Source of the DNA: a virus
Lineage: Duplodnaviria > Heunggongvirae > Uroviricota > Caudoviricetes
Reading direction: 5' to 3' (one strand)
DNA: 64,000 bases
Virus record (IMG/VR): IMGVR_UViG_3300028888_000086
The notes beneath the pieces were generated by a model. The model worked only from the letters and a program-made list of their open reading frames with translations, did not search any database and was not told the DNA's origin. The translations under genes and the position numbers were made by a program. The stretch's first letter is position 1; every line of letters starts with the position of its first letter. Below are positions 3,026 through 51,416 of this stretch, in pieces.

Positions 3026-4885
3026 TTATTTTTTCGATTTTCCTGCTCTAAATTTATTCTTCATTTTTTCTGTATCTTCTCTCAAACTACTACCACCAAC
3101 TCCATAACCTTCTTCATTAACAACCATAAGACCTAATCCTAATAAGTTGTTTAAGAATTTTTGGTTATCCTCTGTCGTAACTGCTTCTCTTGCTTTTTCT
3201 ATAAACGGTCTTGCATTTCTAGATAACAGAGCAGATAAATCCATCTCACTGATCTTTTGTCCTGTTACTCTATATCTACCTTGACCCATTATAGGTTCAT
3301 CTTTCTTTGGATTAATGTCATGGAAAGCATCGTTACCAAATAAGGATGAAGTTACTTTACTTGAATAAGACGGTATATGATGTAGTTCAATAAGAGTCAT
3401 CCATCCACACTGTAATTTCTTATCAACTGGGACAAATTTACCTGTCATATTTTTAACTACCTTTTCATATTCTTCAGCAGTTAAATTGGCTTTTAATTCA
3501 TCCAGGTCAGTTACAGAAGACTCAGGCATTAAAATTTGACTCTGAGATTCTACATTTAATTCAGTCATCCACTCTTCTACTTTACTAGGTGTGAATTCTG
3601 AATAACAACCTACATTAAAATAGTATACTTCTTCAATAGGTTTAGTATCATGAAGCTTTAAGAATTCATCAACACTTAATTTATCATAACGCCCTTGATA
3701 ATATTTGTTTATAAGTGGCATTATTTTATTTCTTCCTGTTTTTGTTTTCTTATATTCTTCAACCATTTCATATAATCTGTACGCTATCAAACCTAATGAT
3801 TCCTCTAATAATACACCAGCAATTTTTCTATTAATGGTACTATAAGGATTCATAACAACCTCTACCCTATATTGTTTTCCAGTATTTTTATCAACCATTA
3901 TAGGCATCAATTCATCTGGCAAAACAGTAGAAATAACACCTTTACCACCATATCTATTAGTTACTTTAGAACCTACCATAAGAGTTGTTACTTTAATTAA
4001 TCTTATTCTTACAGTATAGACAACTTTATAATCATCTCTATCCATAACAATAGGATCTAAGTTATCAGCAGCCACATACTCGGGGAACTTATCAAAAATT
4101 ATAGATCTATCCTTATTTTTGTTATATTCCTCAATTACAGGCTCAGAAGTAGTAGCAAATTTATAATCTACCTTTACTGACTTCGGAATTTTAGGTTTTT
4201 CATTTTTCTGAATTAATACGTCAGATACATAAGCCTCGTCTATATTATTTGGAACCTTATATCTCTCTTCTGTAGTATATTGTGAGAGATCCTTTTTACC
4301 TTCTTCTCCAAATAATCCACCTAATTTTTCATTAAGGGCTTTATTAATTTCATCTAATCGTCTTGCTGCAAAATATGTAACTAATGAATCTCCAGAATGT
4401 ACCTTAGTTCCAACAGGTATAATCCACTTTAAAGCAGAAGAAGTTTTTATATTTAATCTTATATCAATTAAACTATAGTGAGACATCCTTCTAGCATAAG
4501 ATTCAGATACAACTAAAGCATCTTCATTAACAAGACCAAACATAGCGTGGAATAAAACCAATGTATTTAAACCAGACTTATATGTATCTTCATTTAATCC
4601 AACAGCTCCAGTAATGATATCTCCCTTTTTAACAGTTTGACCTACTTTTACTTTAGGCTCTGTGTAAATACTAATATCATTTAAAGATTGAATTGCTGTT
4701 CTTCTATTAATATCAACAGTTTCACCATTATTGAGTTTAACTGTTACTTTATCAGAATCTATACTTACAACTTTTCCTTCATCATACTCAAATTTTTCAT
4801 TAAGTATGTTATTTTTAAGCTCTTCATCGTGTCCTGTGTCAACTAAAGGACGCTGAGCATTAACTAAAGGGATACTTTGTTTCAT
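3026..4885 (-). CDS. rpoB: RNA polymerase beta subunit, C-terminal exon (exon 2)
   Basis: MKQSIPLVNAQRPLVDTG aligns to bacterial NMQRQAVPL..EAPLVGTG. It also has NRYGGKGVIS (RHGNKGV motif), MNPYSTINRKIAG, and GQGRYRVTGQKISEMDLSAL (GGQRFGEMEVWAL). Confidence 0.9.
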   Translation of the reverse strand: MKQSIPLVNAQRPLVDTGHDEELKNNILNEKFEYDEGKVVSIDSDKVTVKLNNGETVDINRRTAIQSLNDISIYTEPKVKVGQTVKKGDIITGAVGLNEDTYKSGLNTLVLFHAMFGLVNEDALVVSESYARRMSHYSLIDIRLNIKTSSALKWIIPVGTKVHSGDSLVTYFAARRLDEINKALNEKLGGLFGEEGKKDLSQYTTEERYKVPNNIDEAYVSDVLIQKNEKPKIPKSVKVDYKFATTSEPVIEEYNKNKDRSIIFDKFPEYVAADNLDPIVMDRDDYKVVYTVRIRLIKVTTLMVGSKVTNRYGGKGVISTVLPDELMPIMVDKNTGKQYRVEVVMNPYSTINRKIAGVLLEESLGLIAYRLYEMVEEYKKTKTGRNKIMPLINKYYQGRYDKLSVDEFLKLHDTKPIEEVYYFNVGCYSEFTPSKVEEWMTELNVESQSQILMPESSVTDLDELKANLTAEEYEKVVKNMTGKFVPVDKKLQCGWMTLIELHHIPSYSSKVTSSLFGNDAFHDINPKKDEPIMGQGRYRVTGQKISEMDLSALLSRNARPFIEKAREAVTTEDNQKFLNNLLGLGLMVVNEEGYGVGGSSLREDTEKMKNKFRAGKSKK

Positions 4886-6571: not shown

Positions 6572-6919
6572 TTATACTAATGATTTTATATTGATTTGTT
6601 TATACTCACAATCAACTGAATTAAAGAACTCCTCTAATTCATTCTTTATTTTATCTTTTATATCCCTAGCAGCAACATACTCACTCATAGGTAATTCTCC
6701 ACTACATCTTATAAATGCACTATAAGATACTAAATAATTATACGTATCTTTTAATTGATATATAACTAACTTTACAGAAAATCTATCATATTTTTCTGGT
6801 ATACTATTCTTTAAAGTTTCGTATAATATATCTCTGGCTTTTGTAATACTTGGATCTAAATTGTCTTCTAATATGTTGTAAGGAATTTCATAAGATAATA
6901 AAATTTCAAAATAATTCAT
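6572..6919 (-). CDS. hypothetical protein between rpoC and rpoB
   Basis: 115-aa ORF in RNAP operon context. Confidence 0.5.
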   Translation of the reverse strand: MNYFEILLSYEIPYNILEDNLDPSITKARDILYETLKNSIPEKYDRFSVKLVIYQLKDTYNYLVSYSAFIRCSGELPMSEYVAARDIKDKIKNELEEFFNSVDCEYKQINIKSLV

Positions 6920-7147: not shown

Positions 7148-9244
7148 TTAACCTAATTTGTCGTTTACTAACAAACCTAAAATAACTTCTGACATTACGT
7201 CTCCTTGTAATGAAACCTCTCCTTTTAATGCTTTACTAATTGACTTAGAAGCAAAACCATAAGAAAGAGTTGTATAGAATGAGGGCTTATTTAATACTGC
7301 TGATTGAGTTCCTTGATACTCTATTTCCTCTATTTTTGAAGTTTTAGGATTATAAACAACTCTAGTTAATCCAGCAAATAATAACTCAATAAGCTCTTCT
7401 TGCATTGAGTGTAAATCAGTAATGCCAGTTTTTTGGAATCCATCGTCAGTAACTTCATAAAATTGTTTTCTAAAAATGGTATAAACACTATTAATATCCT
7501 TAACTTTATTAAATCTAGCAGCTATATTATCCATTCTAACAACACCATTACATATTCTATCAAATTTCTTTACTTTAGCACCATCTGGGAAATAATATAT
7601 ACATTTAGGATTATATAAATACTCTTCATTATCTATATAAACATGAATATTACCATTTTTATCCTCATCATATTTTATTATTCCATCATTAATAGCATAA
7701 CAGTCTGATACTAAAACATTTTCTTTCTCAAAATATCTTTGTCCATTACTTCCTCTAGCTCTAAGAAGATTAATTAGGCAGTTTAATTTATAGATAGGAG
7801 ATGTTGTATTATAGGCATAACAAACCTCTTCTCCAGCCTTAAACGTACTTTTACCAACAGTCACTAAATTATCTGGACGTGGATATTTTAATTCTGCTCC
7901 ACGAACTTTAAGGTAAATCCACTTACCCTCTTCTCTAAATGTACAATCTTTAGGGGCTATTAAACAACTAGTTAAATCCAGCTTCCTTTCGTGGCCGCCA
8001 TGTTTTAAGCCAAGAGCTGTTTGAGTTGTACTTTCCATAAGAGAAGTACCAAATGAGAGACCTATAGCAGCACCATCAGTAAAATCAAATTTATTTTTAC
8101 CTAATAAGTCTGGAGTTACTACATTTAAATCTCCTTTATTTTTAGTAACTATAGATCTAACTAGCACTAAATCATCTTCAGAAGGTCTAGCGATCGAGGT
8201 AGTTGGAAATACTTTACCATCTACTGTTGTTCTTCCTAATGCTTTATATCTTGGGATTAATAAACCCTGATTATCTAAATCTTCACCATCTCTATATATA
8301 TAGGAATTTAAACAATAGGAAATTTGACGGTTTAACCATCCGCTCGATGGCACACCGCTAACTTTAATAGATTGTAGTGATCTGTTTTCAATACTATGGT
8401 AGATCATATCTTTTTCATTTAATCCAGTTAATAAAGATCCCCTTGTAATAACAGGTTTTTCATCTATACCAGATATAATGAATTGAGGCATGTTTAGAGC
8501 TGAAATACTAGAAATCTTAACTCTTCCTGCTCTATTTAATTCATCTTTTAAATCGTCTGAAAATTTACCCTCAACTTCTTTTTCATAATCAGCATATTTT
8601 TTAGTTAACATAGCTAATTTTTGTTTGTCAGTAAGTTCTTCAGAGTCAGCTATTCTACAAATTTCTTTATAAGTTTCTGTATCCGTGTCTGCGAATAATG
8701 TTTTGAATGAAAATGTTACAACGCCAGCTTGAGTTACGGCTCTTAATGCCAACTTTTGTAATTCACTTCTTTTTTCTACTCCCTGTTCATCTCTATTTAA
8801 GTAAGAAGATAATTTTACAGCAGCTTTAGCATCCATTCTAGTATATGGATCTTTTAATATATTTAATTTATCTATATCAGCATCCAATATCTTAGAAATC
8901 CTTATTTTACCATAGCATGTTGTTTTACTTTTATAATCTTCACTTCCTATCTTTCCAGTAAAAACAATGGGGGTCCCGTATTTTATCTTTTTTTCAACTT
9001 CAACATCCTTTAGTAAATCCTCGTAGCTTGTATAAAAATATTTTGGATTATCTAAGTCATCGGGATTTTCTAAAACAAACTCGGTTAAAACAGCCAAACC
9101 ATTTAAAGTTTCGTGATTAAATGGAAATATTGGCATGTTATTTTTCTTATAAACATTTACATATCTTGGGGACATTTTATTGTAGGTATCTTCTGCTACA
9201 CTTTCATCAACAAGTTGAATCGAAATTTGATCCCCGTCAAAATC
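7148..9244 (-). CDS. rpoC: RNA polymerase beta' subunit exon 3 (starts at DFDGDQ; the track's TTG start at 9256 is intron sequence)
   Basis: DFDGDQISIQLV is the catalytic NADFDGDQMAVH motif; long C-terminal beta' body. Confidence 0.9.
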   Translation of the reverse strand, partial: DFDGDQISIQLVDESVAEDTYNKMSPRYVNVYKKNNMPIFPFNHETLNGLAVLTEFVLENPDDLDNPKYFYTSYEDLLKDVEVEKKIKYGTPIVFTGKIGSEDYKSKTTCYGKIRISKILDADIDKLNILKDPYTRMDAKAAVKLSSYLNRDEQGVEKRSELQKLALRAVTQAGVVTFSFKTLFADTDTETYKEICRIADSEELTDKQKLAMLTKKYADYEKEVEGKFSDDLKDELNRAGRVKISSISALNMPQFIISGIDEKPVITRGSLLTGLNEKDMIYHSIENRSLQSIKVSGVPSSGWLNRQISYCLNSYIYRDGEDLDNQGLLIPRYKALGRTTVDGKVFPTTSIARPSEDDLVLVRSIVTKNKGDLNVVTPDLLGKNKFDFTDGAAIGLSFGTSLMESTTQTALGLKHGGHERKLDLTSCLIAPKDCTFREEGKWIYLKVRGAELKYPRPDNLVTVGKSTFKAGEEVCYAYNTTSPIYKLNCLINLLRARGSNGQRYFEKENVLVSDCYAINDGIIKYDEDKNGNIHVYIDNEEYLYNPKCIYYFPDGAKVKKFDRICNGVVRMDNIAARFNKVKDINSVYTIFRKQFYEVTDDGFQKTGITDLHSMQEELIELLFAGLTRVVYNPKTSKIEEIEYQGTQSAVLNKPSFYTTLSYGFASKSISKALKGEVSLQGDVMSEVILGLLVNDKLG

Positions 9245-10736
9245 CTTGATATTCAAGCAGTTACGTTACTTCTGCCTCGTTCTCTTATGAACTGCTATAT
9301 GTCTCCATATAGAATAGACTATATCTTCATTATTAAATTTCTTAATAATGTTCCGCTTTTCCACTTACGATTTTAGTGTACTCCTGTAAAAGGATAGTCG
9401 TTGAGGAACAATAAACTTATTAGTCAGATAAGTTTTTTATTTCTTTAAATAATTCATCTAGATCTTCATATACTTTATAAGGATACTTGAAATCACTGTC
9501 TGACTTAGTTTTTATAATATTTGAGTAATAGAATACTCGTAAACCATGTTCTAAACAAAGATTTCGTTTATTATCATCCATTTTAACTCTTTCTTCAAAA
9601 GTATATTTTTTATCAAAAAATTCAGTTGGTTTAAAATGTTGTAATCCTTGACACTCTATAACTGCATTAAAGTCGGGTAAGTAAAAATCTACGTGCTGTT
9701 TTCTTTTATACTTTAACCAATCCCAGGTATATTGTTTTATTATATTAATATTATTATCTTTACAATATAATTCAATATCAACTTCTAAAATAAATCTATC
9801 TCCACAACTAGGACATCCACAATTACTTAAATGTATAGATGGTTGCTGCCAAAACGGTCCATGAGAATTACATATTATCTTAACTGGTGTAGTACAATTT
9901 ACGTACTCAACTTCATCATATCCATAAGTATCTTTATGTATTAATTTTGCGCGACGTATAAATTCTTCAGTATTAATATTAACTCCACCATTACACTCTG
10001 AACACCCATGTCCATATAAATGATCATGTGGTCTTTGAGTAAATTCTTTTTTACACCTATTACAAATCAATTTAACTGGTGTATTGATATTTACATAATT
10101 TACTTCACTGTAATCATATTTATCTTCGCCATGTACTTTTTTAGCTGCTTCTATAAAACTTTCTGTTGTGTATTTTTTATATGGACTTGGATTACATTCT
10201 TTACATCCACATCCCTGTAAAATATCAACCGGCTTAATTTCAAAATACCCATGTATATCACAATTTAGTATAACAGGCGTACTACTATTAATATAATTAA
10301 CTTTATTATATCCGTATCTATCTCCATGAATCTCTCTAGCCTTTTCTATAAACTGTTCCTGTGTATATTTTACTCCACCTTTACAGTTAGGACATCCTTG
10401 TCCACAGAGATGATTGTGTGCAGTCTGAATAAATTCATTTCTGCACTTATTACAAATTATAATAACTTTATCTTTACTTGATGTATAATTTACTTTGCTA
10501 TAATCATATTTATTTTCACCATGTACTTTTTTAGATCTTTCTATAAATTCTTCTGTTGTATATTTTTTCATTATAATTTTAGTTTATATAATTTATTTAT
10601 ATTGTTCCTGCTGATTTTCTCTATTTTATGAATTTTTAGGGTAGGTGACTAAATCCTACATTAACCTCCTATCATAAACCTAGCGAGAGTTTCCAGCATT
10701 TAACGGAATTTTAAAACACCAATTTTAAAATATTTT
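9245..10736 (-). mobile_element. group I intron B of rpoC (family 1), ~1.49 kb, carrying a homing-endonuclease ORF in a peripheral loop just upstream of P7
   Basis: R UUCCUCAACGACUAUCC (~9393-9409) and S GAAGAUAUAGUCUAUUC (~9311-9330) lie downstream of the ORF stop. The intron ends ...AUCAAG before GAU UUU GAC. The 5' exon ends in U (GCU). Confidence 0.65.
9420..10571 (-). CDS. intron-encoded homing endonuclease-like protein: 4 tandem Zn-ribbon repeats plus C-terminal Vsr/PD-(D/E)xK-like nuclease domain
   Basis: The repeat YT.E.FIE...K.HG..YDYS.VNY....P..I.C..HG.F.Q.P..HL.G.GCP.C occurs 4 times. The C-terminus has HVDFYLPDFNAVIECQGLQHF (DFYLP..N.AIE..G.QH). Confidence 0.75.
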   Translation of the reverse strand: MKKYTTEEFIERSKKVHGENKYDYSKVNYTSSKDKVIIICNKCRNEFIQTAHNHLCGQGCPNCKGGVKYTQEQFIEKAREIHGDRYGYNKVNYINSSTPVILNCDIHGYFEIKPVDILQGCGCKECNPSPYKKYTTESFIEAAKKVHGEDKYDYSEVNYVNINTPVKLICNRCKKEFTQRPHDHLYGHGCSECNGGVNINTEEFIRRAKLIHKDTYGYDEVEYVNCTTPVKIICNSHGPFWQQPSIHLSNCGCPSCGDRFILEVDIELYCKDNNINIIKQYTWDWLKYKRKQHVDFYLPDFNAVIECQGLQHFKPTEFFDKKYTFEERVKMDDNKRNLCLEHGLRVFYYSNIIKTKSDSDFKYPYKVYEDLDELFKEIKNLSD

Positions 10737-10814: not shown

Positions 10815-11120
10815 CATACAAAACATTGAATATTCCGAAAAATACTTATATTTTCATATAAGACTAGACTATATCATCATCTATATTTCAAGATGGACTG
10901 CGCTTCAAAAATAGGAATTTCACCTATTTCTTACTCCATATAGGATAGTCGTTACACCTTTTTTGATTTATAATTTCAAAACTTGGCTCGGGATTGCCAT
11001 ATTATATTTCTATAACTTAGGTTTCCCCGATAGCAGAGATTTTATTTTCTCCACACCTAGCATTTACTAGTTCACAGTCTTTGCATTATAAGATCGCTCT
11101 TATAAGTCACAAATTTCTTT
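10815..11120 (-). mobile_element. group I intron A of rpoC (family 1, no ORF, ~306 nt)
   Basis: R GGUGUAACGACUAUCC (~10943-10958) and S GAUGAUGAUAUAGUCUAG (~10867-10884) are present. The 5' exon ends CAU (U). The intron ends UGUAUG. Confidence 0.7.
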
Positions 11121-12281
11121 ATGAAGTGTAGGAGGCCTATTAATAATTACTAGTTGTTTTTCTGCAAATTCCTTAAATAATTTTTGAGTTTCAGGATTAA
11201 ATGCTTCTTCTCTAGTAGCTTTCATAGCCTCTTTGTATGTAAAGTTAAGCTCTTTCTGTAGATGTTCAATAAATTTTTCTCTAAGTAATTCATAAGCAAT
11301 AGATACAGGAATACCAATTTCATCAATCTTCAAATCTGTTGCTGGAACAATTGGACATCTTGCAGAGTTTTTTGTTCTTACTCCAAATAATTCACGGGCT
11401 AAATTTTCTTTGGAGGTATTTAATAATTCAGTAGCTTCTTTTTTACCTGTATTCAAAAAAGCTCTAAGTAATGCAGTATATCTAACTTTTTCGCCAGGAG
11501 TTTTAAAGCGGCCAATTACTTCTTCATAATTCAGGTCATTACTTTTTTTATCCTGTACACAACAAAGTCTAATAATAATACTGTACCAAACTGACAATTT
11601 ACTAGACCCTTGAGTTTTCTTACCATTTTTATATTCAAAGGTAACGGGTCTCATCATTGCAGGTAATACTAAATAATATCGATTTATAAGTTTTCTGAAT
11701 TCGTTTGCTCTTTCTGGGAAGTGTTTTTCTATAATAGCTAACAGACCTTCATAAGAACATTTAGATTCATCTGTTATAAATTCAGATATTTTTAGTTCTT
11801 TCTTTGTGGGACTATAAGTAAATTGGCAAGTATCAAAAACCTTTATAGTTAATTTCTTTCCACCACGACCAGCATATCCTAAGTTTTTGAAATCATTACC
11901 TTGGAAATCTAGTTTGATAGTACTTTCAGAAAATATATCATCAAATAATTCTTTAAATATATCAAATCTCAAGTCATTTAAGTAATAAAAAGGTAATTCT
12001 ATTCTTGCAAATCTTCTCATACCTTCCTCTCTTGTAAAAACTCTAGCTCCACAAAAAGGGCAAGGTTCATGAGAGGCTCTTTTAATTTTACCACAAATAC
12101 AACGATCTTCATAGATTGACCCGAAAGCATCAACATCATAAACTCCTCCAGGTATGGGTTCAGGATAGTTGAATTTCAGGTTAAAGTCTCTATGATCAAA
12201 TAAAACTCTATCTCGACCATCACTTCTTGTATAGTCTAATATAGCTTCATCTGTTAATAATTCTAGTGATACTTTTGACAT
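11121..12281 (-). CDS. rpoC: RNA polymerase beta' subunit exon 1 (through ...INRPPTLH)
   Basis: N-terminal Zn finger CICGKIKRASHEPCPFCG, RFARIELPFYY (RMGHIEL), INRPPTLHK (LNRAPTLHR). The annotated tail EICDL* is intron read-through. Confidence 0.9.
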
Positions 12282-12297
12282 AATTTACTTTTTTTAA

Positions 12298-13383
12298 TCA
12301 TTCTGTATCTTTCCAAATAATTTTACTAGCTAATTCTGAGTCTATAGGATTTGCTTTAGACCACTCTTTCAGCATTTGTTTAACATCGGCTATAGCATCA
12401 GACCTAGTTTTATCTTTTAATTTTTCATATATACCAGGTTCAACAGCTACTTCAATTAAATCAGAAATAACATCTTGAGTTATAGCTTTAGAAGTATTCG
12501 TAAACTTGGCACGATACTCACGATAAATAACTACATCATCATAAGTTAAATTAAGGTCAGCAAATTCAGAAGAGGTTCTAATTTCAGCTGGTTCTTTATT
12601 AAACCAAGATAACTGTAATTTTCTAACACGGGCAGCAACTTGAGGTCTTCCAGCATCTTCATATCTCTGAGCTAATTCTTCTACTATATCATATTTAACA
12701 GACATAATTTTATTTAAAGCTCTATTAATTTGATTAGCATAAACCTCAGGCATTGTTGGACAGTCTATAATTAAATCATATAAACCGGATGAGAATAAAT
12801 AAATAATCAGAGCGGGTAATTGTCTCTGTTTTCTCTTTCTAGATATTGTAGAATCCTTTGATAAATCTCGGGAAGCCAAATAATCAACAAACCTAGCCAT
12901 ATATTCTCTAGCATCATCAGTAAATTTCTTATTAAATGATCCAGATTCATCTCCGAGTAAATTCTCATCCACATCCTCTCCTCTTAAAGGTGTATCAGGA
13001 GCATAAACAGAATTAACCATACGAGCATGACCTTGTCTTTGTAATAGATCTTTAACAATAAAATTAGCTGTATTAGTACTAGAATGTTTAGGATTAGCTA
13101 AAACAATAGAAGTTAAAACATCCTCTAAAGCTGTATCTGGTGATTTCTTTCCTGCTGTAAGAATATCATCATAAGCCGTACATAACCAAATTTCATCTTG
13201 AGTCATTTTACCAGCATATTGACTAGCATCTACATGTTCATTTTTAGATTCACTTTCTTCCTCTGATTCATTAGAGTCTCCTTCAGTCTCATCACCAACA
13301 TCATCGTCTGGCATTGGGAAAAAATAACTATCCTCATTTACATCAGACTCATCATCATTAAAATAATATTGATTATCTTCCAT
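12298..13383 (-). CDS. acidic hypothetical protein, first gene of the rpoC-rpoB operon (possible RNAP-associated factor)
   Basis: 361 aa with a D/E-rich N-terminus. GC is clearly higher than in flanking DNA. It is preceded by a minus-oriented promoter motif at ~13471-13495. Confidence 0.6.
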   Translation of the reverse strand: MEDNQYYFNDDESDVNEDSYFFPMPDDDVGDETEGDSNESEEESESKNEHVDASQYAGKMTQDEIWLCTAYDDILTAGKKSPDTALEDVLTSIVLANPKHSSTNTANFIVKDLLQRQGHARMVNSVYAPDTPLRGEDVDENLLGDESGSFNKKFTDDAREYMARFVDYLASRDLSKDSTISRKRKQRQLPALIIYLFSSGLYDLIIDCPTMPEVYANQINRALNKIMSVKYDIVEELAQRYEDAGRPQVAARVRKLQLSWFNKEPAEIRTSSEFADLNLTYDDVVIYREYRAKFTNTSKAITQDVISDLIEVAVEPGIYEKLKDKTRSDAIADVKQMLKEWSKANPIDSELASKIIWKDTE

Positions 13384-13544: not shown

Positions 13545-13560
13545 AAATCCTTATATATGA
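13545..13560 (+). promoter_or_regulatory. conserved promoter-like motif (AAATCCTTATATATGA) driving the tRNA cluster
   Basis: It is a family member of the AAAGCCTTATATATGTA motif, and the first tRNA starts 7 nt downstream. Confidence 0.55.
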
Positions 13561-13566: not shown

Positions 13567-13654
13567 GGAGAGGTGCCGAAGTTGGTCATAACGGCCTAGA
13601 CTTGAAATCTTGTGTGTCTTTATAGACCCGTGGGTTCGAATCCCACCCTCTCCG
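13567..13654 (+). tRNA. tRNA-Ser(UGA), class II with long variable arm
   Basis: Acceptor GGAGAGG/CCTCTCC, D-arm GCCG...CGGC, anticodon loop CTTGAAA, T-arm GTGGGTTCGAATCCCAC. Confidence 0.8.
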
Positions 13655-13678
13655 CTTTCAAAATAAAATAACAAAAAT

Positions 13679-14088
13679 GGCGGCATGTTGGAATTGGTAG
13701 ACAAGGCGGTCTTTTTGCCAATTAGACAAACAAAAGAGAGTGCATAGGTAAGAAATTCCTATGTAGAACCTCTCAAATTCGGTGGAAGTCTCTATGAGAA
13801 AATACCGAGCTAAATCAGATTTAATTCTGTAAATGTGTAGAGAGCAGAAGGGAGGTACCTAAGTTGAGAAAAGCATTGAGTATGACGGTAGTGCGGAGGT
13901 GTCAGCCTCAGGATTGGTTCGACTCCAAAATGCTGAGTTGCAACTTTTTCAATATGGTAATGGTGTGCTCCAGACCACAACAACACAATTAGTCGCCAAG
14001 CGTCTGAGAAAGTTGGCTATGGTAACATAGTGTGGTAGGAAAAACCGCTCCCAATTATGGGGTCCCAGTTCGACTCTGGGTGTCGCTA
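13679..14088 (+). tRNA. tRNA-Leu(UAA) interrupted by a 326-nt group I intron between U34 and A35 (exons 13679-13713 and 14040-14088)
   Basis: 5' exon GGCGGCA TG TTG GAATTGGTAGA CAA G GCGGT CUU. 3' exon AAAA ACCGC, long variable arm TCCCAATTATGGGG, T-arm CCCAGTTCGACTCTGGG, acceptor TGTCGCT (two G.U pairs with GGCGGCA). The intron ends ...GUAGG. Confidence 0.75.
13714..14039 (+). mobile_element. group I intron (family 2) in the tRNA-Leu(UAA) anticodon loop
   Basis: Canonical cyanobacterial/plastid trnL insertion site. The 5' exon ends in U and the intron ends in G. It has internal P7-like pairing UUCGACUCC / UUAGUCGCC, and shares AAUACCGAGCUAA with the AAA+ ATPase intron. Confidence 0.65.
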
Positions 14089-14136
14089 CAAAAGAGGTGA
14101 AAAATCCTCTTTTATTTTTCCGTCTATAAATCCTTA

Positions 14137-14154
14137 AAAGCCTTATATATGTAA
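14137..14154 (+). promoter_or_regulatory. promoter-like motif AAAAGCCTTATATATGTA preceding a ~140-nt structured non-coding region
   Basis: Motif family member. It sits immediately after the hairpin AGAGGTGAAAAATCCTCT plus T-run. Confidence 0.5.
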
Positions 14155-14335
14155 TGGAGATCGAGCTAATAGTTAATTCCGATTTTCCGGGGTAAAGACG
14201 CACCCGGCAACAGAAGTGGTCAAATTTATGAAAAGGGAAAGCCTGAGAATGCACCATTACGTTAGACTGTGCAAAAAACTTGGGCTTTCCTAATTTTTTT
14301 TCAAGACTTTTATGTCTTTTTATTTTTTTTCTTGA
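14155..14335 (+). ncRNA. candidate small RNA (promoter to double terminator)
   Basis: No ORF. Stems CCGGGG...CCCGG, GGAAAGCC...GGGCUUUCC plus U8, then AAGACUUUUAUGUCUU plus U-run. Promoter upstream and next gene's promoter downstream. Confidence 0.4.
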
Positions 14336-14369
14336 GAACCTTATATGTGAATTTTAAATATATATTAAA

Positions 14370-18045: not shown

Positions 18046-18354
18046 ATGATTAAATCTGATAATTACAAATTAAAATGGATTGATGAAGGAGGTATATTTT
18101 TCCCAGTTAATGGAAATACTATATTACATTCATCATTAGGTCCTGGTGTCTGGAAAGTTGTACCTAGTCCTCGTATGAATGATGGAAGATTAGGACTAAC
18201 TAAAGTATGTGATAAATTTGAATTCGAATACAAAATTTATGACATAGGAAATAAAAGCTTCAGAGATAAAGTTATTAATGTCTGGAATTCTGATCTGTTT
18301 ATAGAAGATGGAAGAAATTTAGGCATAATAATGAATGGAACAAAAGGAACGGGT
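18046..18354 (+). CDS. AAA+ ATPase exon 1 (ends ...NGTKGTG, first half of Walker A)
   Basis: The ORF ends exactly at GTKGTG-stop and the exon ends in U (GGU). Confidence 0.7.
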
Positions 18355-18616
18355 TAAATAAATAGCCCTTCTTCTAAGGAATTAGAAGAATTTTTAAGGA
18401 ACGAATTCGGTGAAGGCTGTGATGCTAATACCGAGCTAACAGAAATAATTACGTAAGGTATTTCTGTAGTGTAGAGCATAGTAGTTGAATAAATATAATA
18501 CTACCAAGAGCGCTCCTTACCCCAACTGAAATAAGTGGGTAAAAATATATGCCGAGCTTATAAGAAGAAGAATTATAAGAGTCTAGGGATAAAAAGCTCT
18601 AGAGATAACAAAACTG
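18355..18616 (+). mobile_element. group I intron (family 2) splitting the P-loop codons of the AAA+ ATPase gene
   Basis: Joining the exons gives GTKGTG|KTVSAKLLCNELNMPVLIVDSDF, i.e. GxxGxGKT. The intron contains AAUACCGAGCUAA and CCGAGCUUAUAAG, shared with the trnL intron, and ends ...AACUG. Confidence 0.65.
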
Positions 18617-19549
18617 AAAACCGTATCAGCTAAACTTCTCTGTAATGAACTTAATATGCCTGTATTAATTGTTGATAGTGATTTTGAAGGTAGAATCTTA
18701 GAATTTATACAAAATTTAGATTATGAATGTGTAGTTCTTATTGATGAAGCCGAAAAAACATTTAAAGACGAAAGAGATAACAGTGAAGTTTTATTGAAGC
18801 TTATTGACGGAATATATAATAGATCCAGAAAATTATATATTCTCACTACTAATAAATTAACTGTAAATGAAAATTTATTAGGAAGACCAGGTAGAATCAG
18901 ATATATACAAGAATTCAATAATCTTGATCCTAAATTGATATCACTGTATTTAGATGACAATTTAAAGGATAAAGAAAAGAAACAATACGTAACTGAAATT
19001 GTAGATCTTTTAGAAATCTCAACTATCGACATTCTCAAAAATGTTGTAGATGAGGTTAATATGTTTGGTGAAATTCCTGAAGATTCGCCAATGAATATTC
19101 CAAGAGGTAAGTACGTATTTGATATTCTTAAATTGTGGGGTTGTACCGAAGATGATATTCCAGATGTTAAAAAGTTTCTGGATAAACATAAGACTTCTGG
19201 AAAATCGTTATATGAATGGTTATATAATAAAGCAAATGATGAAGATCTTCCAGAAGAATATAAAGATACAGAAGATAACTACTACAATTATGAACTTCTA
19301 AGAAATGAATTTGGATATACCAATAGTTGTACATATTCTACAATAGATAAACTTTCTACAAAGTATAGTACAATGTGGAAAGACTGTGATACCTCTATAG
19401 GTAGAGTATTAACAGAACCAGATGCATTCCATAAAGAAGGTGGAGATTATAATTTTATGCTAATTGAAGGGAGATATGATAAGGAAGTTTATCTTTGCGT
19501 ATTACTAAAACAAAGAAAATCTCCAACATTATATCATGGAGTATATTAA
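18617..19549 (+). CDS. AAA+ ATPase exon 2 (Walker B VVLIDEAE, sensor-1 TTN, Arg finger RPGRIR)
   Basis: Classic AAA second region of homology LLGRPGRIRY. The frame is open upstream of the annotated Met back to 18617. Confidence 0.75.
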   Translation, partial: KTVSAKLLCNELNMPVLIVDSDFEGRILEFIQNLDYECVVLIDEAEKTFKDERDNSEVLLKLIDGIYNRSRKLYILTTNKLTVNENLLGRPGRIRYIQEFNNLDPKLISLYLDDNLKDKEKKQYVTEIVDLLEISTIDILKNVVDEVNMFGEIPEDSPMNIPRGKYVFDILKLWGCTEDDIPDVKKFLDKHKTSGKSLYEWLYNKANDEDLPEEYKDTEDNYYNYELLRNEFGYTNSCTYSTIDKLSTKYSTMWKDCDTSIGRVLTEPDAFHKEGGDYNFMLIEGRYDKEVYLCVLLKQRKSPTLYHGVY

Positions 19550-19592: not shown

Positions 19593-19609
19593 TGTGTCGA
19601 AAAAAAAAG

Positions 19610-19737
19610 AGAAGGTGTCAAAACCTGGGTATATACCCAACCTTCTCAATAGACCTTAAAACCGTCACGGTAAAATATTCTTACCCATTTTAAAGATTAT
19701 GAAACACTCCACATTTATTTCATATATAAGGCTTTGA
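19610..19737 (-). ncRNA. candidate ~110-nt small RNA on the minus strand (promoter at 19721-19737, terminator hairpin GAGAAGGU...ACCUUCUC plus U9)
   Basis: Orphan minus-oriented promoter motif with no ORF downstream (only a 7-codon MGKNILP). Palindromic loop GGGUAUAUACCC. Confidence 0.4.
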
Positions 19738-19763: not shown

Positions 19764-22739
19764 TCACTCCACATTCTTTCTAAGATCCATAAGTATGTTA
19801 TCAGTAAACTGCTCAATACTAGAGCTAATATTTTCTGTTTCTTCATTATAGAATCCACATAAAATTTGTTCTGATAATATTCTTTTAGTTCTTATAAAAT
19901 CAAATCTTCTTTTATCCCAAGACCAATTTTCATCAGACTTTAACTGAATTACGACTTGTGGAATATAGACGTTTATCTCTGAAAATTTAGATCCACGTCT
20001 AGCTATTCTCCCAACTAACTGCACATAATCAGCATTAGTCCACGGTAAACTTAAGATTACTATTTTATTACAGCATTTTTGAAGTCCATCAATACCGGTT
20101 CCAATAGGGCTAGATGCAATAATAATATCACAATCTCCACTAATGAATTTATCCTCTAGTATTGAATTTCTATCTTTTACATCAACTTCTCCAGTATATA
20201 TTTCATAGGTAAATCCTTTTTCTTTTACCCACGACTCAATAATTGGAATAGATAACGTACTAATACTATAAATAATAGTTTTAGATTTAATTTCATCTTT
20301 AACTGAATCAAGTTTAATTCTAGTTAAGGCTTTATCAACTGTACTCCATGACATCTTATCTTGACTTATAAGACTGCTTTTAATATCAGTTCCATTAACT
20401 TCATTAAAATATGTATTAGTCTTTATGTCAAAATCAGAATTTCCAAAGATTCTAATACCGTTTTCAAATAACTCATACCTAGCAAGAACTTTATTTTTTA
20501 TAGTCCTGTTTCTAGTTTTGAATTTAGGATTTACACCACTAAGTAATCCCAAGACTGAATGAAGCTCAGTTAGGTCATTCTTAAAAGGTGTTGCTGATAA
20601 TCCTAAGACCTTGAGTTTTGGATTGTGTTTTTGTGCTTCCATTCTCATAATCTTTAGATATCTGTAAGTATTAGACTCTTTTGAATCTTCCATCTTTTTT
20701 GCTCTCTGTATTTCATCAAGTACTATAAAATCAACCATACCAGATTTAACTAGATTCATTATAGGTTCCTCTAAAATATCAGAAGTCCTAAATTTATCAT
20801 AGTTAATCAAGATATAATTAAATTTGTTCTCATCTATAGCATCAAGACAATTTTTATTTCCATTATAATCAATTACTATGCTATCTTTTTTATAGCATTT
20901 CTTTATTTCTCTTTTAACTGTATCTTTAACAGACAAAGGAGAAACATATATAGTAATTCTCATTCTGGAATATCTTGAAGCATACAGAGCACTTAATGTT
21001 TTACCACTACCAACTTCGGACCAGTTTCCAAAATACGGAGTCCTATTTAATTTATAAGCTACGTATTTTTGAAGTAAATCAGGTCTTAATGTATCTGGTA
21101 AACAATATATACAGGTAGTATCAAGATTAAAAACTTCATTGTACTCTCCTAATACAATTTCTCTTATCTCCCACAACCAATCTGAATGTTCAGATTTCTT
21201 TAATGATTTTAATTCTTCGATTGTAATATATAAATTGCTATAAGAGTCATTAATTATCTCTTGCCAAAAATCTTTGACCTTCTTTACTTTAAGTAGATCA
21301 TATAATTCCCCACTTAAAGTAATATTAGCAAGTATTTTTTCAAGAGTAAGCACGGTTTTCATACATCTAGAAATGCCAAATATTTTTTCTCTTTCTGGCA
21401 TCTCATAACCCAGATCCTCAGCTAATCTTCCTATAGTATCTCTTCTGTTCTGAGTATCTATTTCCGTTGATGCTATCTTATCTATAGCACTTCCAGAACA
21501 CTCAAGACCCAAAAGAACTAAATCATCAAAATCAAGATATTCAAAATCAAAAATTGTAATATCCTGAAGTCTTGGATCCAGGTTATATATAGGACCTTCT
21601 TTATATTTTTCTATCAGCTCTTTGAATTTAGGTTCATTTTTATGTACATAGAGAAAATTGTATAATCCAATTTCCTTTTTATTAGAGGGTTTAGGAAGTC
21701 TATTGTGTTTTATACAAAATTCTTCCAATTCTTCATATGTATAGTGGTTAAATCTATCATATTTTTCCCACAGTTCCTTAAATCTAGGTTCATTTTTATG
21801 CTTTCTAAAAAATTGATATAAACCAGTTTCAGTTTCCCCTCTATACTGACTAGGAAGTCTATTATTCTTTTTACAAAATTCTTCCAATTCTTCATACGTA
21901 TAATAATGAATTTTATTATATTTTTTATATAATTCTTTAAATCTTGGTTCATTTTTATGCTTTCTAAAAAATCGATATAAACCACCTTCTTCTTTATATT
22001 CACTACTTGGAAGTCTATTATGTTTTATACAAAATTCTTCCAATTCTTCATACGTATACTTCTTATCAGATTTACCATATTTTTCTATTAATTTCTTAAA
22101 CCTAGGCTCATCTTTATCTCTATGATAAACTAGAAATTGATATAATCTAATTTCTTCTTTATCAGAAGATTTAGGAAGTCTATTGTGTTTTATACAAAAT
22201 TCTTCCAATTCTTCATACGTATACTTCTTATCAGATTTACCATATTTTTCTATTAATTTCTTAAATCTAGGCTCATCTTTATGTATTCTAAGATATTGAT
22301 ATAGACCTTTTTCACTATATTTAGGAAGTCTATTGTGTTTTATACAAAATTCTTCCAATTCTTCGAATGTATTAAAATGATAGAGCCTGTGGAGTTTACC
22401 ATATTTTTCTATCAATTTCTTAAACCTAGGCTCATTTTTATGTATTCTAAGAAATTGATATAAACCAGTTTCCCCTTTATTTTTATTTTGTGGAAGTCTA
22501 TTATTCTTTTTACAAAATTCTTCCAGATCTTCATATATATATTTTTTATGGATTTTACTATAATTTTCCCACAATTCTTTAAATCTTGGTTCATTTTTAT
22601 ATTTCCAAAAAAATCGATATAAACTGCTTTCTTCTCTATACTTTTTTTGTGGAAGTCTATTATTCTTTTTACAAAATTCTTCCAATTCTTCATACGTATA
22701 AATTTTACTTTTGTTTCTTTTTTCTTCTTTGTTTTTCAT
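19764..22739 (-). CDS. SF2 helicase with 9 N-terminal ~45-aa tandem repeats (helicase-associated 'HA'-domain-like)
   Basis: Repeat YTYEELEEFCKKNNRLP...GLYQFL..HKNEPRFKELxEKY occurs 9 times. Helicase motifs GSGKT (I), VLDEIQ (II), GLSATP (III), GTGIDGLQ. Confidence 0.8.
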   Translation of the reverse strand: MKNKEEKRNKSKIYTYEELEEFCKKNNRLPQKKYREESSLYRFFWKYKNEPRFKELWENYSKIHKKYIYEDLEEFCKKNNRLPQNKNKGETGLYQFLRIHKNEPRFKKLIEKYGKLHRLYHFNTFEELEEFCIKHNRLPKYSEKGLYQYLRIHKDEPRFKKLIEKYGKSDKKYTYEELEEFCIKHNRLPKSSDKEEIRLYQFLVYHRDKDEPRFKKLIEKYGKSDKKYTYEELEEFCIKHNRLPSSEYKEEGGLYRFFRKHKNEPRFKELYKKYNKIHYYTYEELEEFCKKNNRLPSQYRGETETGLYQFFRKHKNEPRFKELWEKYDRFNHYTYEELEEFCIKHNRLPKPSNKKEIGLYNFLYVHKNEPKFKELIEKYKEGPIYNLDPRLQDITIFDFEYLDFDDLVLLGLECSGSAIDKIASTEIDTQNRRDTIGRLAEDLGYEMPEREKIFGISRCMKTVLTLEKILANITLSGELYDLLKVKKVKDFWQEIINDSYSNLYITIEELKSLKKSEHSDWLWEIREIVLGEYNEVFNLDTTCIYCLPDTLRPDLLQKYVAYKLNRTPYFGNWSEVGSGKTLSALYASRYSRMRITIYVSPLSVKDTVKREIKKCYKKDSIVIDYNGNKNCLDAIDENKFNYILINYDKFRTSDILEEPIMNLVKSGMVDFIVLDEIQRAKKMEDSKESNTYRYLKIMRMEAQKHNPKLKVLGLSATPFKNDLTELHSVLGLLSGVNPKFKTRNRTIKNKVLARYELFENGIRIFGNSDFDIKTNTYFNEVNGTDIKSSLISQDKMSWSTVDKALTRIKLDSVKDEIKSKTIIYSISTLSIPIIESWVKEKGFTYEIYTGEVDVKDRNSILEDKFISGDCDIIIASSPIGTGIDGLQKCCNKIVILSLPWTNADYVQLVGRIARRGSKFSEINVYIPQVVIQLKSDENWSWDKRRFDFIRTKRILSEQILCGFYNEETENISSSIEQFTDNILMDLRKNVE

Positions 22740-26475: not shown

Positions 26476-27018
26476 TTATATACTAGCTATTATAGTATAA
26501 TCATCAGAAAATTCTATAATTAAATTTTGTAAACACTCATTTAAAGACTTAGTAAAATTTAATAAGGTTTCATATGTTCCCCAACCATTAGGAGAGTTAA
26601 ATTTTTCTAGATCCGTTTTATTATCTTTTAAATATTTATAACCAATTTCTATACCATCAATATATTTTTGATCTACATATTTAAAATTTAATACATCAGG
26701 ATGCCATAAATAATCATACAATGTCTTATCATTTATTGGAACATTTCTAGCCATTTGACCTAGATTATGTGTTATATTACCACTCCAAATAGTATTAGTC
26801 TCATATTCTACTTCATTAATATTACTTAAGTCTATATTAGGAAAATAAGCTTTAACCTCATCTATTGTTTTTAATTCTACAACTTCTCCATCCTTCCTTA
26901 CATATACGCCGGTTCCTTTATGTTTTACTGGTTTAGTTGAAATAATATCTAAATCTAAACTCATATATTTAATTGATTTATAAACTTTTCTTTTCCATGC
27001 TCTGTATTTAATTCCCAT
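26476..27018 (-). CDS. hypothetical protein (likely starts at the internal Met MSLDLDI, ~26961)
   Basis: ORF downstream of the Thg1-like gene. Confidence 0.5.
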   Translation of the reverse strand: MGIKYRAWKRKVYKSIKYMSLDLDIISTKPVKHKGTGVYVRKDGEVVELKTIDEVKAYFPNIDLSNINEVEYETNTIWSGNITHNLGQMARNVPINDKTLYDYLWHPDVLNFKYVDQKYIDGIEIGYKYLKDNKTDLEKFNSPNGWGTYETLLNFTKSLNECLQNLIIEFSDDYTIIASI

Positions 27019-27758
27019 CCATCATGAGATTTCCATACACTTCTTAAATAATCACCATATTCTTCTGAGTGATGCATTTCTTCTTCTTTCCATATAAATC
27101 TACCAAACTTTTTACCAGCATCATAATCATTCCAATCTATATTATATTTAGACTTTAATAATTCTATCTGCTCATCTGAATTTAAATTTAGTAGATCATT
27201 GTGAGATATGTAAGTTTGAGCTGCCTGTTGTTTGCTATTCTTTATACAGTCTAATTGTCTATATAAAAACCAAGCATAAACATCATTATCATTATCTACA
27301 TTAAAAGCTTTACAGTCAAACTGAAAAGGCTTATATTTACTAAATAAATCATTAACTCCTTCAATAATATCTCTAAAACTGGCACATTCACAGATAGATA
27401 AATTATGCTTTATCATCTCTAAGTTAAAAAATCCAGTTGCAATAGAAGAAATTAAACTATTTAACTTACATAACCTATATTCAAAAAATGGCTGATTTAT
27501 TTCATTTCTAGAGTCAATAAAGAAAGAAATCTCATCACTTTGAACATAAGCAAATTTACAACATTGAATTTCTTTACTTGTATATTCCGCTGTTTTATTC
27601 ATTAAGTCTATAAAGAAATCATCGAATGGCCTCTTAAATTTCTTCTTTATTCTCTTACTAAAACTCCTACCATCTATCATACAAATTAATGGTAAATCCT
27701 TGTTTAATTTATAATTAACTCTCTCTCTATACTCATTAAACTTTTCTTCTAATGTCAT
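26961..27758 (-). CDS. Thg1-like protein (tRNA-His guanylyltransferase / 3'-5' nucleotidyltransferase family)
   Basis: ICMIDGRSFSK matches Thg1 VVRIDGKKFHEF, and AYVQSDEISFF matches AFGESDEYSFIL. The size fits. Confidence 0.6.
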   Translation of the reverse strand: MTLEEKFNEYRERVNYKLNKDLPLICMIDGRSFSKRIKKKFKRPFDDFFIDLMNKTAEYTSKEIQCCKFAYVQSDEISFFIDSRNEINQPFFEYRLCKLNSLISSIATGFFNLEMIKHNLSICECASFRDIIEGVNDLFSKYKPFQFDCKAFNVDNDNDVYAWFLYRQLDCIKNSKQQAAQTYISHNDLLNLNSDEQIELLKSKYNIDWNDYDAGKKFGRFIWKEEEMHHSEEYGDYLRSVWKSHDGWELNTEHGKEKFINQLNI

Positions 27759-31643: not shown

Positions 31644-31934
31644 TTATTTTCTTTCTATTTTCCAATTAAGTTTTATGATAAGTTTCAGTGTTTCCATCGC
31701 TGTATTTCTATCATACTCTTTTTCTGATTCTGGTAATTCATTGTAAGGGACTAAGCATGGGTGTTGTTTTAATTCATCATTTCTAACTTCTCCATAGCTC
31801 CATCCTTGATCAATTCTTTGTTTAGCCCAGATATCGTGTACATTTTCTGCAATTTGTTCACGTAATTCAATAAGTTCTTCTGGTAATTTAATTCCTTCTG
31901 TGTTAATTGGTTTAGGATTATAAGTTTCTTTCAT
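31644..31934 (-). CDS. RyR-domain protein
   Basis: AENVHDIWAKQRIDQGWSYG...HPCLVPYNELPESEKEYDR matches the RyR repeat consensus. GC is higher than in flanks. A GC-rich terminator hairpin lies at ~31598-31620. Confidence 0.6.
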   Translation of the reverse strand: MKETYNPKPINTEGIKLPEELIELREQIAENVHDIWAKQRIDQGWSYGEVRNDELKQHPCLVPYNELPESEKEYDRNTAMETLKLIIKLNWKIERK

Positions 31935-32154
31935 TTTACTTAGATTTAATTTAATTTAATTTCAATAATAAGGATTTGAAGAATTATTAAAAAAGAAGGA
32001 AGTTTCACCATCCCGGCTACTTCTTCCTAAAAATGTCATACAAAAACAACTGAATTATTGAGAATCATGCTTCCTCACATATATAAGGATTTCAGCTCTC
32101 TTTATTTTTAATTTATTTTTTACCATCTTTAAGTATTTTAATTTTTTCATAGTA

Positions 32155-45650: not shown

Positions 45651-45894
45651 TGTTAGCCCCTCTATATAGTGATATATAGAGAAAATCCTGAATATGCTGG
45701 AAACTCCTAAAGCTTTATCTACCAAAGTGTGAAAATGATAAAGATATTACAATGGACAATCAGCAGGGATAACTCTGTAAAAAGAGAAGCCCTCAACGAC
45801 TACCAAGGGACATCTAAAATAAAATTAGATGAAGGTATAGTCTAAACCCAAAATAAAATATCTCGAAAGGGAGGGTATCAATTGTATCACACAA
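45651..45894 (+). mobile_element. group I intron 1 of polA (family 1, no ORF; boundaries +/-30 nt)
   Basis: R CCUCAACGACUACC (~45790-45803) and S GAUGAAGGUAUAGUCUAAACCC (~45829-45850) on the plus strand. These are reverse complements of the rpoB/rpoC intron elements. Confidence 0.6.
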
Positions 45895-46529: not shown

Positions 46530-46815
46530 AAGTAAAATTGTGGCATACTGAAGTAATTTAGTATGAAAAAGATTGTGAACTCATATATGTGAGGTGTCTA
46601 AGAAAATAAAAAATCTTAGGCTAACGGTAAAAGCTAAGTTAGAAATAATATGCTAATACCGTGCCAAGTCAGAAATGAAAGGTGTAGAGACTATCCTTTA
46701 TGGAGTAGGTTTATAGTGAAATTCTATATTCCGAAGTGCAATCCATCTTGCAATATAGATGATGATATAGTCCAGCTCTAATGGAAACATTAGGAGAAAG
46801 CGGATTCTAATACTT
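46530..46815 (+). mobile_element. group I intron 2 of polA (family 1), inserted inside motif C between His and Asp
   Basis: The 5' exon ends CAU. R GGUGUAGAGACUAUCC (~46678-46693) and S GAUGAUGAUAUAGUCCAGC (~46759-46777) are nearly identical to rpoC intron A. The 3' end is approximate. Confidence 0.6.
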
Positions 46816-50885: not shown

Positions 50886-50944
50886 GAGAGCTGAAATATG
50901 TTCTCTTTTTCTTTTTCTTTTTATTTTTCCTTCTAATATTCCTT

Positions 50945-51381: not shown

Positions 51382-51416
51382 AACACTCCCTTTTATTTTT
51401 CCGTCTATAAAACGTT

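Follow-up and report, generated by a model that had tools for sequence, protein, structure and literature searches.

Short transcription units without open reading frames in a fragment of an uncultured jumbo phage: candidate small-RNA genes

Background

Short transcription units that hold no coding sequence (CDS), together with small RNAs (sRNAs), have been mapped by ONT-cappable-seq in the jumbo phages 201phi2-1 and phiKZ, one of them beside a transfer RNA (tRNA) gene (PMC11512511). The subject of the present analysis is a group of candidate units of this kind in a stretch of 64,000 nucleotides (nt), hereafter the window, of the virus record IMGVR_UViG_3300028888_000086 (Caudoviricetes). An earlier note on this DNA had proposed three motif-driven units without credible open reading frames (ORFs) as candidate sRNAs; they are treated here as unit 1 (14152-14331, + strand), unit 2 (19598-19720, - strand) and unit 3, of which unit 3a (51433-51550, + strand) is the part retained as a candidate RNA. 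The window is a fragment of an uncultured jumbo phage, rich in AT and in introns, that has a multisubunit RNA polymerase of its own, since contigs of 200-400 kb in IMG/VR and ENA carry the same promoter motif and proteins 60-95% identical to those of the window.

In this regard the units have much in common with those of 201phi2-1 and phiKZ, which are likewise giant phages with their own multisubunit RNA polymerases, and in which a start is followed by a terminator within 250 nt with no CDS between, some units being intergenic and some lying upstream of genes (PMC11512511). The differences are nevertheless considerable. The units of 201phi2-1 and phiKZ are defined by transcripts, whereas those described here are known from sequence alone; one of the sRNAs of 201phi2-1 is conserved across genera, whereas the units here are not even shared among relatives at 60-82% protein identity (PMC11512511); and the lineage is a different one, the RNA polymerase beta protein being only ~26% identical to that of the Staphylococcus/AR9 group. 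In other words, ORF-less transcription units and sRNAs of jumbo phages are already documented, and the units considered here would be new, lineage-specific members of the class.

The promoters of such phages also offer a comparison. The AR9 early promoter is AAATATATATTAT-(6N)-G(+1), and the phiKZ late promoters have TATG with a G start (PMC5312081). The motif that heads the present units, AGCCTTATATATG, resembles in style both the AR9/phiKZ-type early promoters and the TATG late promoters of phiKZ; like the early class, it is an extended AT-rich sequence, highly conserved and built around TATATAT, that occurs in dozens of copies, all in gene orientation (PMC5312081). Its own sequence, AGCCTTATATATG, sets it apart, as does the CCGTCTATAA found ~20 nt ahead of the motif in several of the strongest copies.

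Two further systems bear a likeness to unit 1. The stable RNAs C and D of phage T4 (species 1 and 2) are small RNAs of little-known function within the tRNA gene cluster, co-transcribed and processed with the tRNAs. Unit 1 resembles them as a small non-coding RNA beside phage tRNA genes, a likeness by description only, and differs in having its own promoter, and a terminator, between it and the tRNA operon. The put RNAs of phage HK022 are cis-acting antiterminator stem-loops downstream of early promoters, and unit 1 similarly has two predicted stem-loops just after a strong phage promoter, followed by terminators and genes. Here too there are differences: the gene downstream of unit 1 has a promoter of its own that is conserved where the unit is absent, the stem-loops are no stabler than chance, the polymerase is a different one and there is no sequence similarity between put and unit 1.

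Architecture of the units

Each of the three units begins, as the earlier note had held, at a perfect copy of AGCCTTATATATG, a motif that is clearly over-represented: allowing up to two mismatches, the window contains 28 copies, against 3.9 +/- 1.9 in shuffles. The strand of the copies matches gene orientation, and some 26 of them are credible promoters, most lying 25-40 nt ahead of a start codon or ahead of a conserved 5' leader; one copy drives tRNA-Ser together with an intron-containing tRNA-Leu. Only eight copies are perfect, and three of these eight head units 1, 2 and 3. An ORF-free stretch of 100-180 nt is not in itself unusual at 27% GC content. What is unusual is the dedicated promoter and terminator, given that most promoters are so close to a start codon. 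In all three units a terminator lies 100-180 nt downstream of the perfect motif (that is, within 250 nt, counted from a predicted transcription start), and no CDS intervenes. Indeed, the sense strands of units 2 and 3a have no ORF of 20 amino acids (aa) or more, and the only frames of unit 1, of 25 aa from GTG or 21 aa from ATG, run across its terminator stem. A hairpin followed by a U-run closes each unit, and the stems quoted in the earlier note are all found where it had placed them.

This anatomy makes us fairly confident that each is a true transcription unit, short and devoid of coding capacity, and from it we infer that they are transcribed and give stable RNAs. The three loci would be autonomous mini-cassettes of the phage's own transcription system, in which a predicted consensus promoter of the phage RNA polymerase leads through 90-150 nt of non-coding sequence to an intrinsic terminator. 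A short non-coding RNA is expected from each because the promoter would fire into a non-coding stretch closed by such a terminator. Moreover, the upstream junction of units 1 and 3a is that of several protein-coding cassettes. At several of the strongest motif copies this longer junction consists of a terminator hairpin with the loop UGAAA(N)A(N), a T-run, CCGTCTATAA, ~10 nt and then AGCCTTATATATG.

Hairpins with this 8-nt loop number 12 in the window, against 2.5 in shuffles. They include the terminators at 14090-14113, 19775-19756 (-), 40145-40126 (-), 50884-50907, 51373-51392, 51955-51978 and 55859-55886, and others occur in the related loci L124 and L126. The loop is retained in relatives and is missing from the terminators of the ORF-less units, and it suggests a sequence-specific termination or processing signal.

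The strong secondary structure claimed for the units was borne out in part. It is present in the terminators and in a hairpin at 51545-51640 (z = -6.3 against dinucleotide shuffles), but not in the body of unit 1 (z = -0.20), and the whole units reach only z = -1.2 to -2.4, values to which the terminators give rise. Similarly, the sRNA reading has on its side the architecture of promoter, non-coding body and terminator, and against it the absence of an Rfam family, of any non-identical homologue and of excess structure in the bodies, together with the hypervariable slots that the units occupy (see below).

Unit 1 and its tRNA neighbourhood

Unit 1 is the most likely of the units to be a genuine sRNA gene, because it adjoins a tRNA operon, has a tRNA-like GC content, and combines two 5' hairpins, an unpaired linker of ~27 nt and a double terminator. 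Its promoter motif (14139-14151, +) is perfect at 13 of 13 positions and carries the shared upstream module TTTTATTTTTCCGTCTATAAA. The predicted non-coding transcript of ~150 nt (14152-14301, +), as read from the fold, the GC content and the ORF lists, opens with a weak hairpin (14157-14186), followed by a GC hairpin (14187-14207) in which CCGGGG (14187-14192) pairs with CCCGG (14203-14207). The unpaired linker (14208-14234) then leads into the terminator hairpin (14235-14290), where GGGAAAGCC (14235-14243) pairs with GGGCUUUCC (14282-14290) ahead of a run of eight U residues (14294-14301). A second, back-up terminator follows at 14303-14331 (+), with AAGAC/GUCUU at 14303-14318 and a long U-run. 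The fold of the unit has z = -2.2 when the terminator is included.

Unit 1 as a whole has a GC content of 40%, and its 80-nt windows reach 44-47%, which exceeds the mean of the 64-kb window (27.5%, standard deviation 6.8) by more than two standard deviations; this GC-rich stretch runs on from the block formed by the tRNA genes and the intron. GC-rich islands are typical of RNA genes in AT-rich genomes. The operon itself comprises tRNA-Ser(UGA) (13567-13655, +; found by ARAGORN, and by Rfam with 50.5 bits), which starts 8 nt after the promoter motif at 13547-13559, and tRNA-Leu(UAA) (13679-14089, +), which a group I intron of 326 nt (13714-14039) interrupts between U34 and A35. Rfam recognises the intron (Intron_gpI, 13703-14032, 32.5 bits, E-value 2.7e-6) and the 3' half of the tRNA (14021-14088). 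ARAGORN misses tRNA-Leu at default settings and, when relaxed, reports a tRNA at 13679-14089 with a 326-nt intron, called as Phe(GAA); the class II variable arm, evident from the sequence itself, identifies it as a tRNA-Leu. The intron site is the classical cyanobacterial and plastid position, and the tRNA-Leu is predicted to be co-transcribed with tRNA-Ser. The operon ends in a terminator at 14090-14113 (+), with loop UGAAAAAU and a T-run, which delimits the unit 1 cassette on its 5' side.

The reading of these features that we favour, tentatively, is that unit 1 encodes an sRNA, which would act in trans through its unpaired stretch, and possibly that unit 3a encodes another. Unit 1 would then work through the linker, either by base pairing or by protein binding.

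The position after tRNA genes also raises the question of a tRNA-like or transfer-messenger RNA (tmRNA)-like molecule, for example the coding piece of a two-piece, permuted tmRNA. A 28-nt stretch of unit 1 does resemble the end of the alpha_tmRNA model (RF01849): the match spans 14108-14225 with an E-value of 6e-4 for the whole window, CGGGGUAAAGACGCACCCGGCAACAGAA fits the 3' end of the model, and ARAGORN, run at a 60% threshold, places a 'resume consensus' there. The match scores 26.6 bits, however, far under the gathering score of 50, with half of its alignment on the AT-rich promoter and 243 model positions deleted. ARAGORN is negative at default settings, the tRNA-like domain that it finds when relaxed is pieced together from fragments of the group I intron, and the tag APGNRSGQIYEKGKPENAPLR has no tag-like C-terminus. 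In addition, tRNA models at E-values up to 10 have no match inside 14152-14335. With a sub-threshold Rfam score, no tRNA-like domain and an implausible tag, the tmRNA or tRNA reading of unit 1 is rejected, and may be regarded as effectively refuted.

A second question is whether the units are genes for micro-proteins of 10-25 aa, such as MEIELIVNSDFPG or MKRESLRMHHYVRLCKKLGLS in unit 1 and MYNKYKKFSW in unit 3a. Micro-ORF cassettes do occur in this phage family: a 36-aa ORF (39562-39452, -) has a paralogue upstream and a 24-aa homologue in a relative (L127), and start sites are hard to judge because most genes of the window have no Shine-Dalgarno sequence. This micro-ORF family (24-39 aa; 39562-39452 (-), ~40030-39910 (-) and L127:5629-5703) has the motif R(L/F)R(I/L)K..D.IK.TKR and a strong GGAGG ribosome-binding site, of which most genes of the genome have none. 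The three units, by contrast, have neither a strong GGAGG nor the conserved RLRIKDLDYIKFTKR-like peptide of the known micro-ORFs. The 21/25-aa frame of unit 1 crosses the terminator stem, as noted above, and its longest frame, extended to 38 aa, has no match among 1.84 billion representative proteins. A coding function of this type is accordingly judged very unlikely.

Units 2 and 3a

Unit 2 lies directly after the terminator of a gene for a 991-aa helicase, with a perfect promoter motif (13 of 13 positions; 19721-19733, -) and a predicted non-coding transcript of ~120 nt (19598-19720, -; GC 33%, z = -1.2). In its terminator hairpin (19647-19609) GAGAAGGU (19647-19640) pairs with ACCUUCUC (19616-19609) around an inner GGGUAUAUACCC, and nine U residues follow (19608-19600). 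There is no gene downstream, the unit running instead into a convergent terminator. Its 5' end carries a 10-nt duplicate of the helicase terminator sequence (AUGUGGAGUG). A search for complementarity within the window gave no assignable target for unit 2.

Unit 3a has a perfect promoter motif (13 of 13; 51420-51432, +) with the same upstream module as unit 1. Its predicted non-coding transcript of ~115 nt (51433-51550, +; GC 33%, whole-unit z = -1.8) consists of an 80-nt A-rich, largely unpaired body, then a terminator of 11 pairs (51516-51544) and a U-run. Within the body, 51444-51460 is a perfect 17-nt complement to the messenger RNA (mRNA) of ORF 9420-10571, which encodes a treble-clef zinc-finger protein (DUF4379/DUF723); the complementary site is at 9614-9630 (-). 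A complement of this length was reached in 3 of 500 dinucleotide shuffles, and nothing else stands out in the intra-window complementarity search. The core 10-mer of the match, AATTCAGTTG, has four sites in the window where 0.28 would be expected, among them 32056-32047 and 6613-6622, and it is common to unit 3a and a further unit, unit 4 (below), at a similar distance from the promoter. Unit 3a could then be a trans antisense RNA on the zinc-finger mRNA by way of a perfect 17-nt duplex. The 17-mer and the AATTCAGTTG signals are suggestive and not decisive.

The earlier note had extended unit 3 to include CGGUCG...CGACCG as part of the same RNA, and this has to be withdrawn. The sequence in question is a long AT-rich hairpin followed by a T-run (51550-51636, +), in which CGGUCG (51550-51555) pairs with CGACCG (51622-51627), and it is the only element that stands out against shuffles (the hairpin with z = -6.3 mentioned above). 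It has three copies in the window, the others at ~39800-39715 (-) and ~39350-39262 (-), with the same outer stem and differing interiors. The 3' arm (CGACCG) of each copy enters a CCGT...AATAA block ~20 nt upstream of the next promoter motif, a block found at this distance from the motif at most strong promoters. A relative (L122) has an analogous CGGCC...GGCCG hairpin ahead of a promoter. The repeated copies precede promoters, and the hairpin is a recurrent promoter-upstream or terminator element and not part of a locus-specific sRNA. At unit 3 the promoter concerned is the perfect motif at 51643-51655 (+), which serves an 89-aa gene at 51680.

Two further units and the downstream genes

A census of what follows each promoter in the window brought up two more ORF-less units beyond those of the earlier note. 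Unit 4 (31985-32090, -) has a promoter with one mismatch (32090-32078), a body of ~90 nt (32077-31985) with a fold z of +0.38, and a hairpin and U-run; a variant promoter and a gene for a RyR-domain protein at 31934 come next. Units 4 and 3a both carry AAUUCAGUUG at a similar offset. Unit 5 (59152-59300, +) is of a different nature, its promoter (59152-59164) being fused to the remains of a D12-class methyltransferase gene, of which the final ~115 nt are left. The relic matches a relative (L126:6811-6931) with ~85% identity over the shared ~115 nt (an estimate from the alignment), stop codon included, and also by tblastx; over all 219 columns of the alignment the mean column identity is 82%. 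One reading frame is open throughout (59165-59300), and unit 5 is, by sequence comparison, demonstrably a truncated gene relic. A corresponding test of units 1, 2, 3a and 4 found neither a relic frame left open nor any similarity, at the nucleotide or the translated level, in ~1.3 Mb of related loci, a small set of relatives. In this phage, in other words, an ORF-less cassette can turn out to be an RNA gene or a gene relic.

Units 1, 3a, 4 and 5, four of the five in all, are followed within 35-95 nt by a promoter and a gene on the same strand (promoter/gene at 14337/14370, 51643/51680, ~31975/31934 and 59307/59342). Such an arrangement would fit cis-acting, promoter-proximal termination, in which a strong early-type promoter and a terminator tune or insulate the downstream gene by attenuation or read-through, the short RNA being a by-product. 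In this regard, continuously expressed genes of AR9 have tandem early and late promoters (PMC5312081), and eight of the eleven sRNAs of 201phi2-1 arise by premature termination in 5' untranslated regions (PMC11512511). Against this stand the lack of a gene downstream of unit 2 and the situation at unit 1, where the 539-aa gene at 14370 has its own variant promoter (AACCTTATATGTG, 14337-14349, +), kept in relatives that lack unit 1, and four relatives manage without the unit. Two consecutive terminators in unit 1 likewise favour insulation over regulated read-through. A role in cis is thus considered unlikely as the general explanation of the units.

Comparison with relatives

Relatives were found through homologues of the 539-aa, 991-aa and 1142-aa neighbours of the units, at 60-93% identity. 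Units 1 and 2 have 100%-identical copies in two other samples (L121, L125); these establish that the sequence is real and are silent on constraint. With blastn and tblastx, the ~1.3 Mb of related loci contain the units only as such identical copies, and related genomes showed no conservation or covariation beyond these copies. A blastn comparison with 50,697 phage records brought up no homologue, scans with exact words of the units were negative in IMG/VR and in Joint Genome Institute (JGI) metagenomes, and single-protein IMG/VR scans with the flanking proteins found nothing. Anchoring on the tRNA-Leu exons was tried and rejected: a 20-mer led to one unrelated GC-rich phage, and a 23-mer to 26 unrelated GC-rich contigs sharing only the T-arm. 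Compared among themselves and with the conserved 5' leaders that other cassettes carry, the units show no similarity. Rfam 15, applied at the gathering score to the whole window and to sub-regions, returned tRNAs and group I introns and nothing in the units, and at an E-value threshold nothing in units 2 or 3; a tRNA or pseudo-tRNA reading of these two units was also discarded, the relaxed ARAGORN calls requiring artificial introns.

The sites themselves differ widely among relatives. In GCA_016648615.1, the complete relative that stands closest (its version of the 539-aa neighbour is 78% identical), a gap of ~150 nt takes the place of the 987 nt that hold tRNA-Ser, tRNA-Leu and unit 1, and the helicase and unit 2 are absent as well. 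The slot of unit 1 is occupied by two small-protein cassettes in a relative at 82% identity and by other genes in relatives at 63-64%; the surroundings of unit 3 are missing in relatives at 61-64%. At the slot of unit 2, a relative with 79% helicase identity (L126) has a promoter-driven RNA element of ~360 nt with the halves of a tRNA(CAU) (12866-13227). Since relatives carry small proteins, an intron-split tRNA, other genes or nothing at these places, the slots are hypervariable, and the units appear from this comparison to be strain-level accessory elements within them.

The element of L126 merits a description of its own. It has a tRNA-like 5' part (GGUCCUG...) and ends in a tRNA(CAU) anticodon arm, a T-arm and a matching acceptor strand, a composition that suggests an intron-split tRNA; Rfam gives no group I match to it, and ARAGORN is negative. 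The same relative carries its own ORF-less promoter-terminator unit of 95 nt (7534-7632, z = -4.1). Both the element and this unit count in favour of the sRNA reading.

Several of these observations weigh against the reading of units 1 and 3a as sRNA genes: the identical copies in two other samples are the only homologues, the units are missing from the syntenic sites of relatives at 60-82% protein identity, and a covariance model of unit 1 (R1), the comparison with related genomes that the earlier note had advised, matches nothing in ~1.1 Mb of related loci. The bodies of unit 1 and unit 4 fold no better than shuffles, units 2 and 3a have a GC content of just 33%, the 17-mer of unit 3a has p ~0.02 once corrected for the four units tested, and the sister unit at 59165-59300 is a plain gene relic.

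The same body of evidence bears on a further explanation, namely that the units are empty or decayed cassettes, in which recombination and deletion have left a promoter, a terminator and junk between them, and whose transcripts would be functionless by-products. This is a live alternative for the weaker units because unit 5, which has the same design, is a gene relic, with its promoter fused to the end of the methyltransferase gene. Hypervariable slots, conservation that stops at identical strains and unit bodies no more structured than chance all agree with it, and the 10-nt AUGUGGAGUG duplication in unit 2, at its 5' end, may be a trace of junction recombination. On the other side, units 1-4 have neither a relic frame nor similarity to any gene in the ~1.3 Mb of related loci, nor in the case of unit 1 among the 1.84 billion proteins; three of the eight perfect promoters are retained, with strong dedicated terminators, double in unit 1; and unit 1 is GC-rich like the RNA genes that it adjoins. 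Decay is thus possible, if somewhat doubtful, as an account of the units as a whole. Returning to the sRNA reading, the finding is a reasonable lead only, conservation extending no further than identical copies.

Genomic context and host

The wider window, with its densely packed phage-like ORFs, has several features that lie outside the finding and are more striking than it: the intron-bearing tRNA-Leu(UAA), three or more additional group I introns and the marked regularity of the promoter and terminator grammar. Fragments of a multisubunit RNA polymerase are found as Rpb2_6 in 3026-4885 (-) and Rpb1_2 in 11100-12281 (-), and the beta-like protein has only 23-30% identity to its counterparts in AR9/PBS1 jumbo phages of Staphylococcus, Listeria and Bacillus. 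The RNA polymerase beta'-like gene contains a group I intron (10845-11101, -; 69.4 bits) and the DNA polymerase A gene two (45637-45865 and 46572-46794, both +; 48 and 52.7 bits), while the introns of relatives L126, L127 and L128 are at different sites. An AAA ATPase gene (exons 18046-18357 and 18656-19549) is split by an intervening sequence of ~300 nt (~18358-18655, +), to which Rfam gives no match and which resembles unannotated DNA beside LAGLIDADG genes of unrelated phages. The 297-aa ORF at 18656-19549 was considered as a LAGLIDADG homing endonuclease and rejected, being exon 2 of the ATPase.

Conserved 5' leaders form part of the same grammar. One family, situated right at the promoter, has a hairpin GUAAACAGGUAAAUUAAAUACUUGUUUAUU followed by UUUUAUUUUC(G/A)AAAUUAUUAACAA, and is common to at least four cassettes (50961-51040, 52018-52080, 39683-39600 (-) and 39233-39190 (-)) and one relative (L124:715-790). 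A second family links the cassettes at 52295 (+) and 41233 (-), whose leaders are 87% identical over 67 nt.

The accessory gene complement around the units comprises the 991-aa helicase (19764-22739, -), a paralogous 1142-aa helicase-methyltransferase (52419-55847, +), an AIPR abortive-infection-type protein (49179-50885, +), a Thg1-like tRNA 5'-end enzyme (26961-27758, -) and the RyR-domain protein (31644-31934, -), a repertoire that suggests conflict with host defences and tRNA repair.

With respect to the host, the word CTTNAAAGCCTTATATATG of the phage promoter, followed by a conserved A-rich leader, occurs upstream of a 57-aa gene in chromosomal contigs of Bacteroidaceae (L185:6340-6622 and some 15 more, among them L158, L160, L164, L165, L171-L173, L180, L182, L186, L188 and L197). 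These contigs have a GC content of 38-47%, and the context upstream of the word varies. The occurrence hints weakly at a Bacteroidaceae host; alternatively, the chromosomal element could be one that responds to phages of this type. A public contig assigned to a 'Mycoplasmatota' metagenome-assembled genome (CASEGV010000001.1, 370,971 bp; L176, L191, L196, L198) is actually a relative of the jumbo phage, with RNA-polymerase-region proteins 69-75% identical, a GC content of 26-28% and many copies of the promoter motif.

Biological implications

A more far-reaching version of the sRNA reading may be formulated, although it is speculative and regarded as improbable. The ORF-less cassettes would be a family of abundant early sRNAs, made from the strongest promoters of the phage polymerase and exchanged from strain to strain like accessory genes; the RNA of unit 1 would work with the tRNA and Thg1 repertoire of the phage, for example as a decoy or regulator against host defences that target tRNAs; and unit 3a would, with unit 4, be a trans antisense regulator of the zinc-finger gene, as a selfish, homing-endonuclease-like element. 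Were this so, the giant phages of gut Bacteroidaceae would have a mobile accessory class made up of RNA cassettes.

At present the main value of the analysis is descriptive, in that it sets out the transcription grammar of the phage, with its promoter, its conserved-loop terminators and its leader families. If the units are transcribed and functional, an uncultured lineage of jumbo phages from the gut would gain sRNA genes as part of its accessory gene set, and the promoter, the terminators and the candidate target would then offer handles on regulation by RNA in phages equipped with polymerases of their own.

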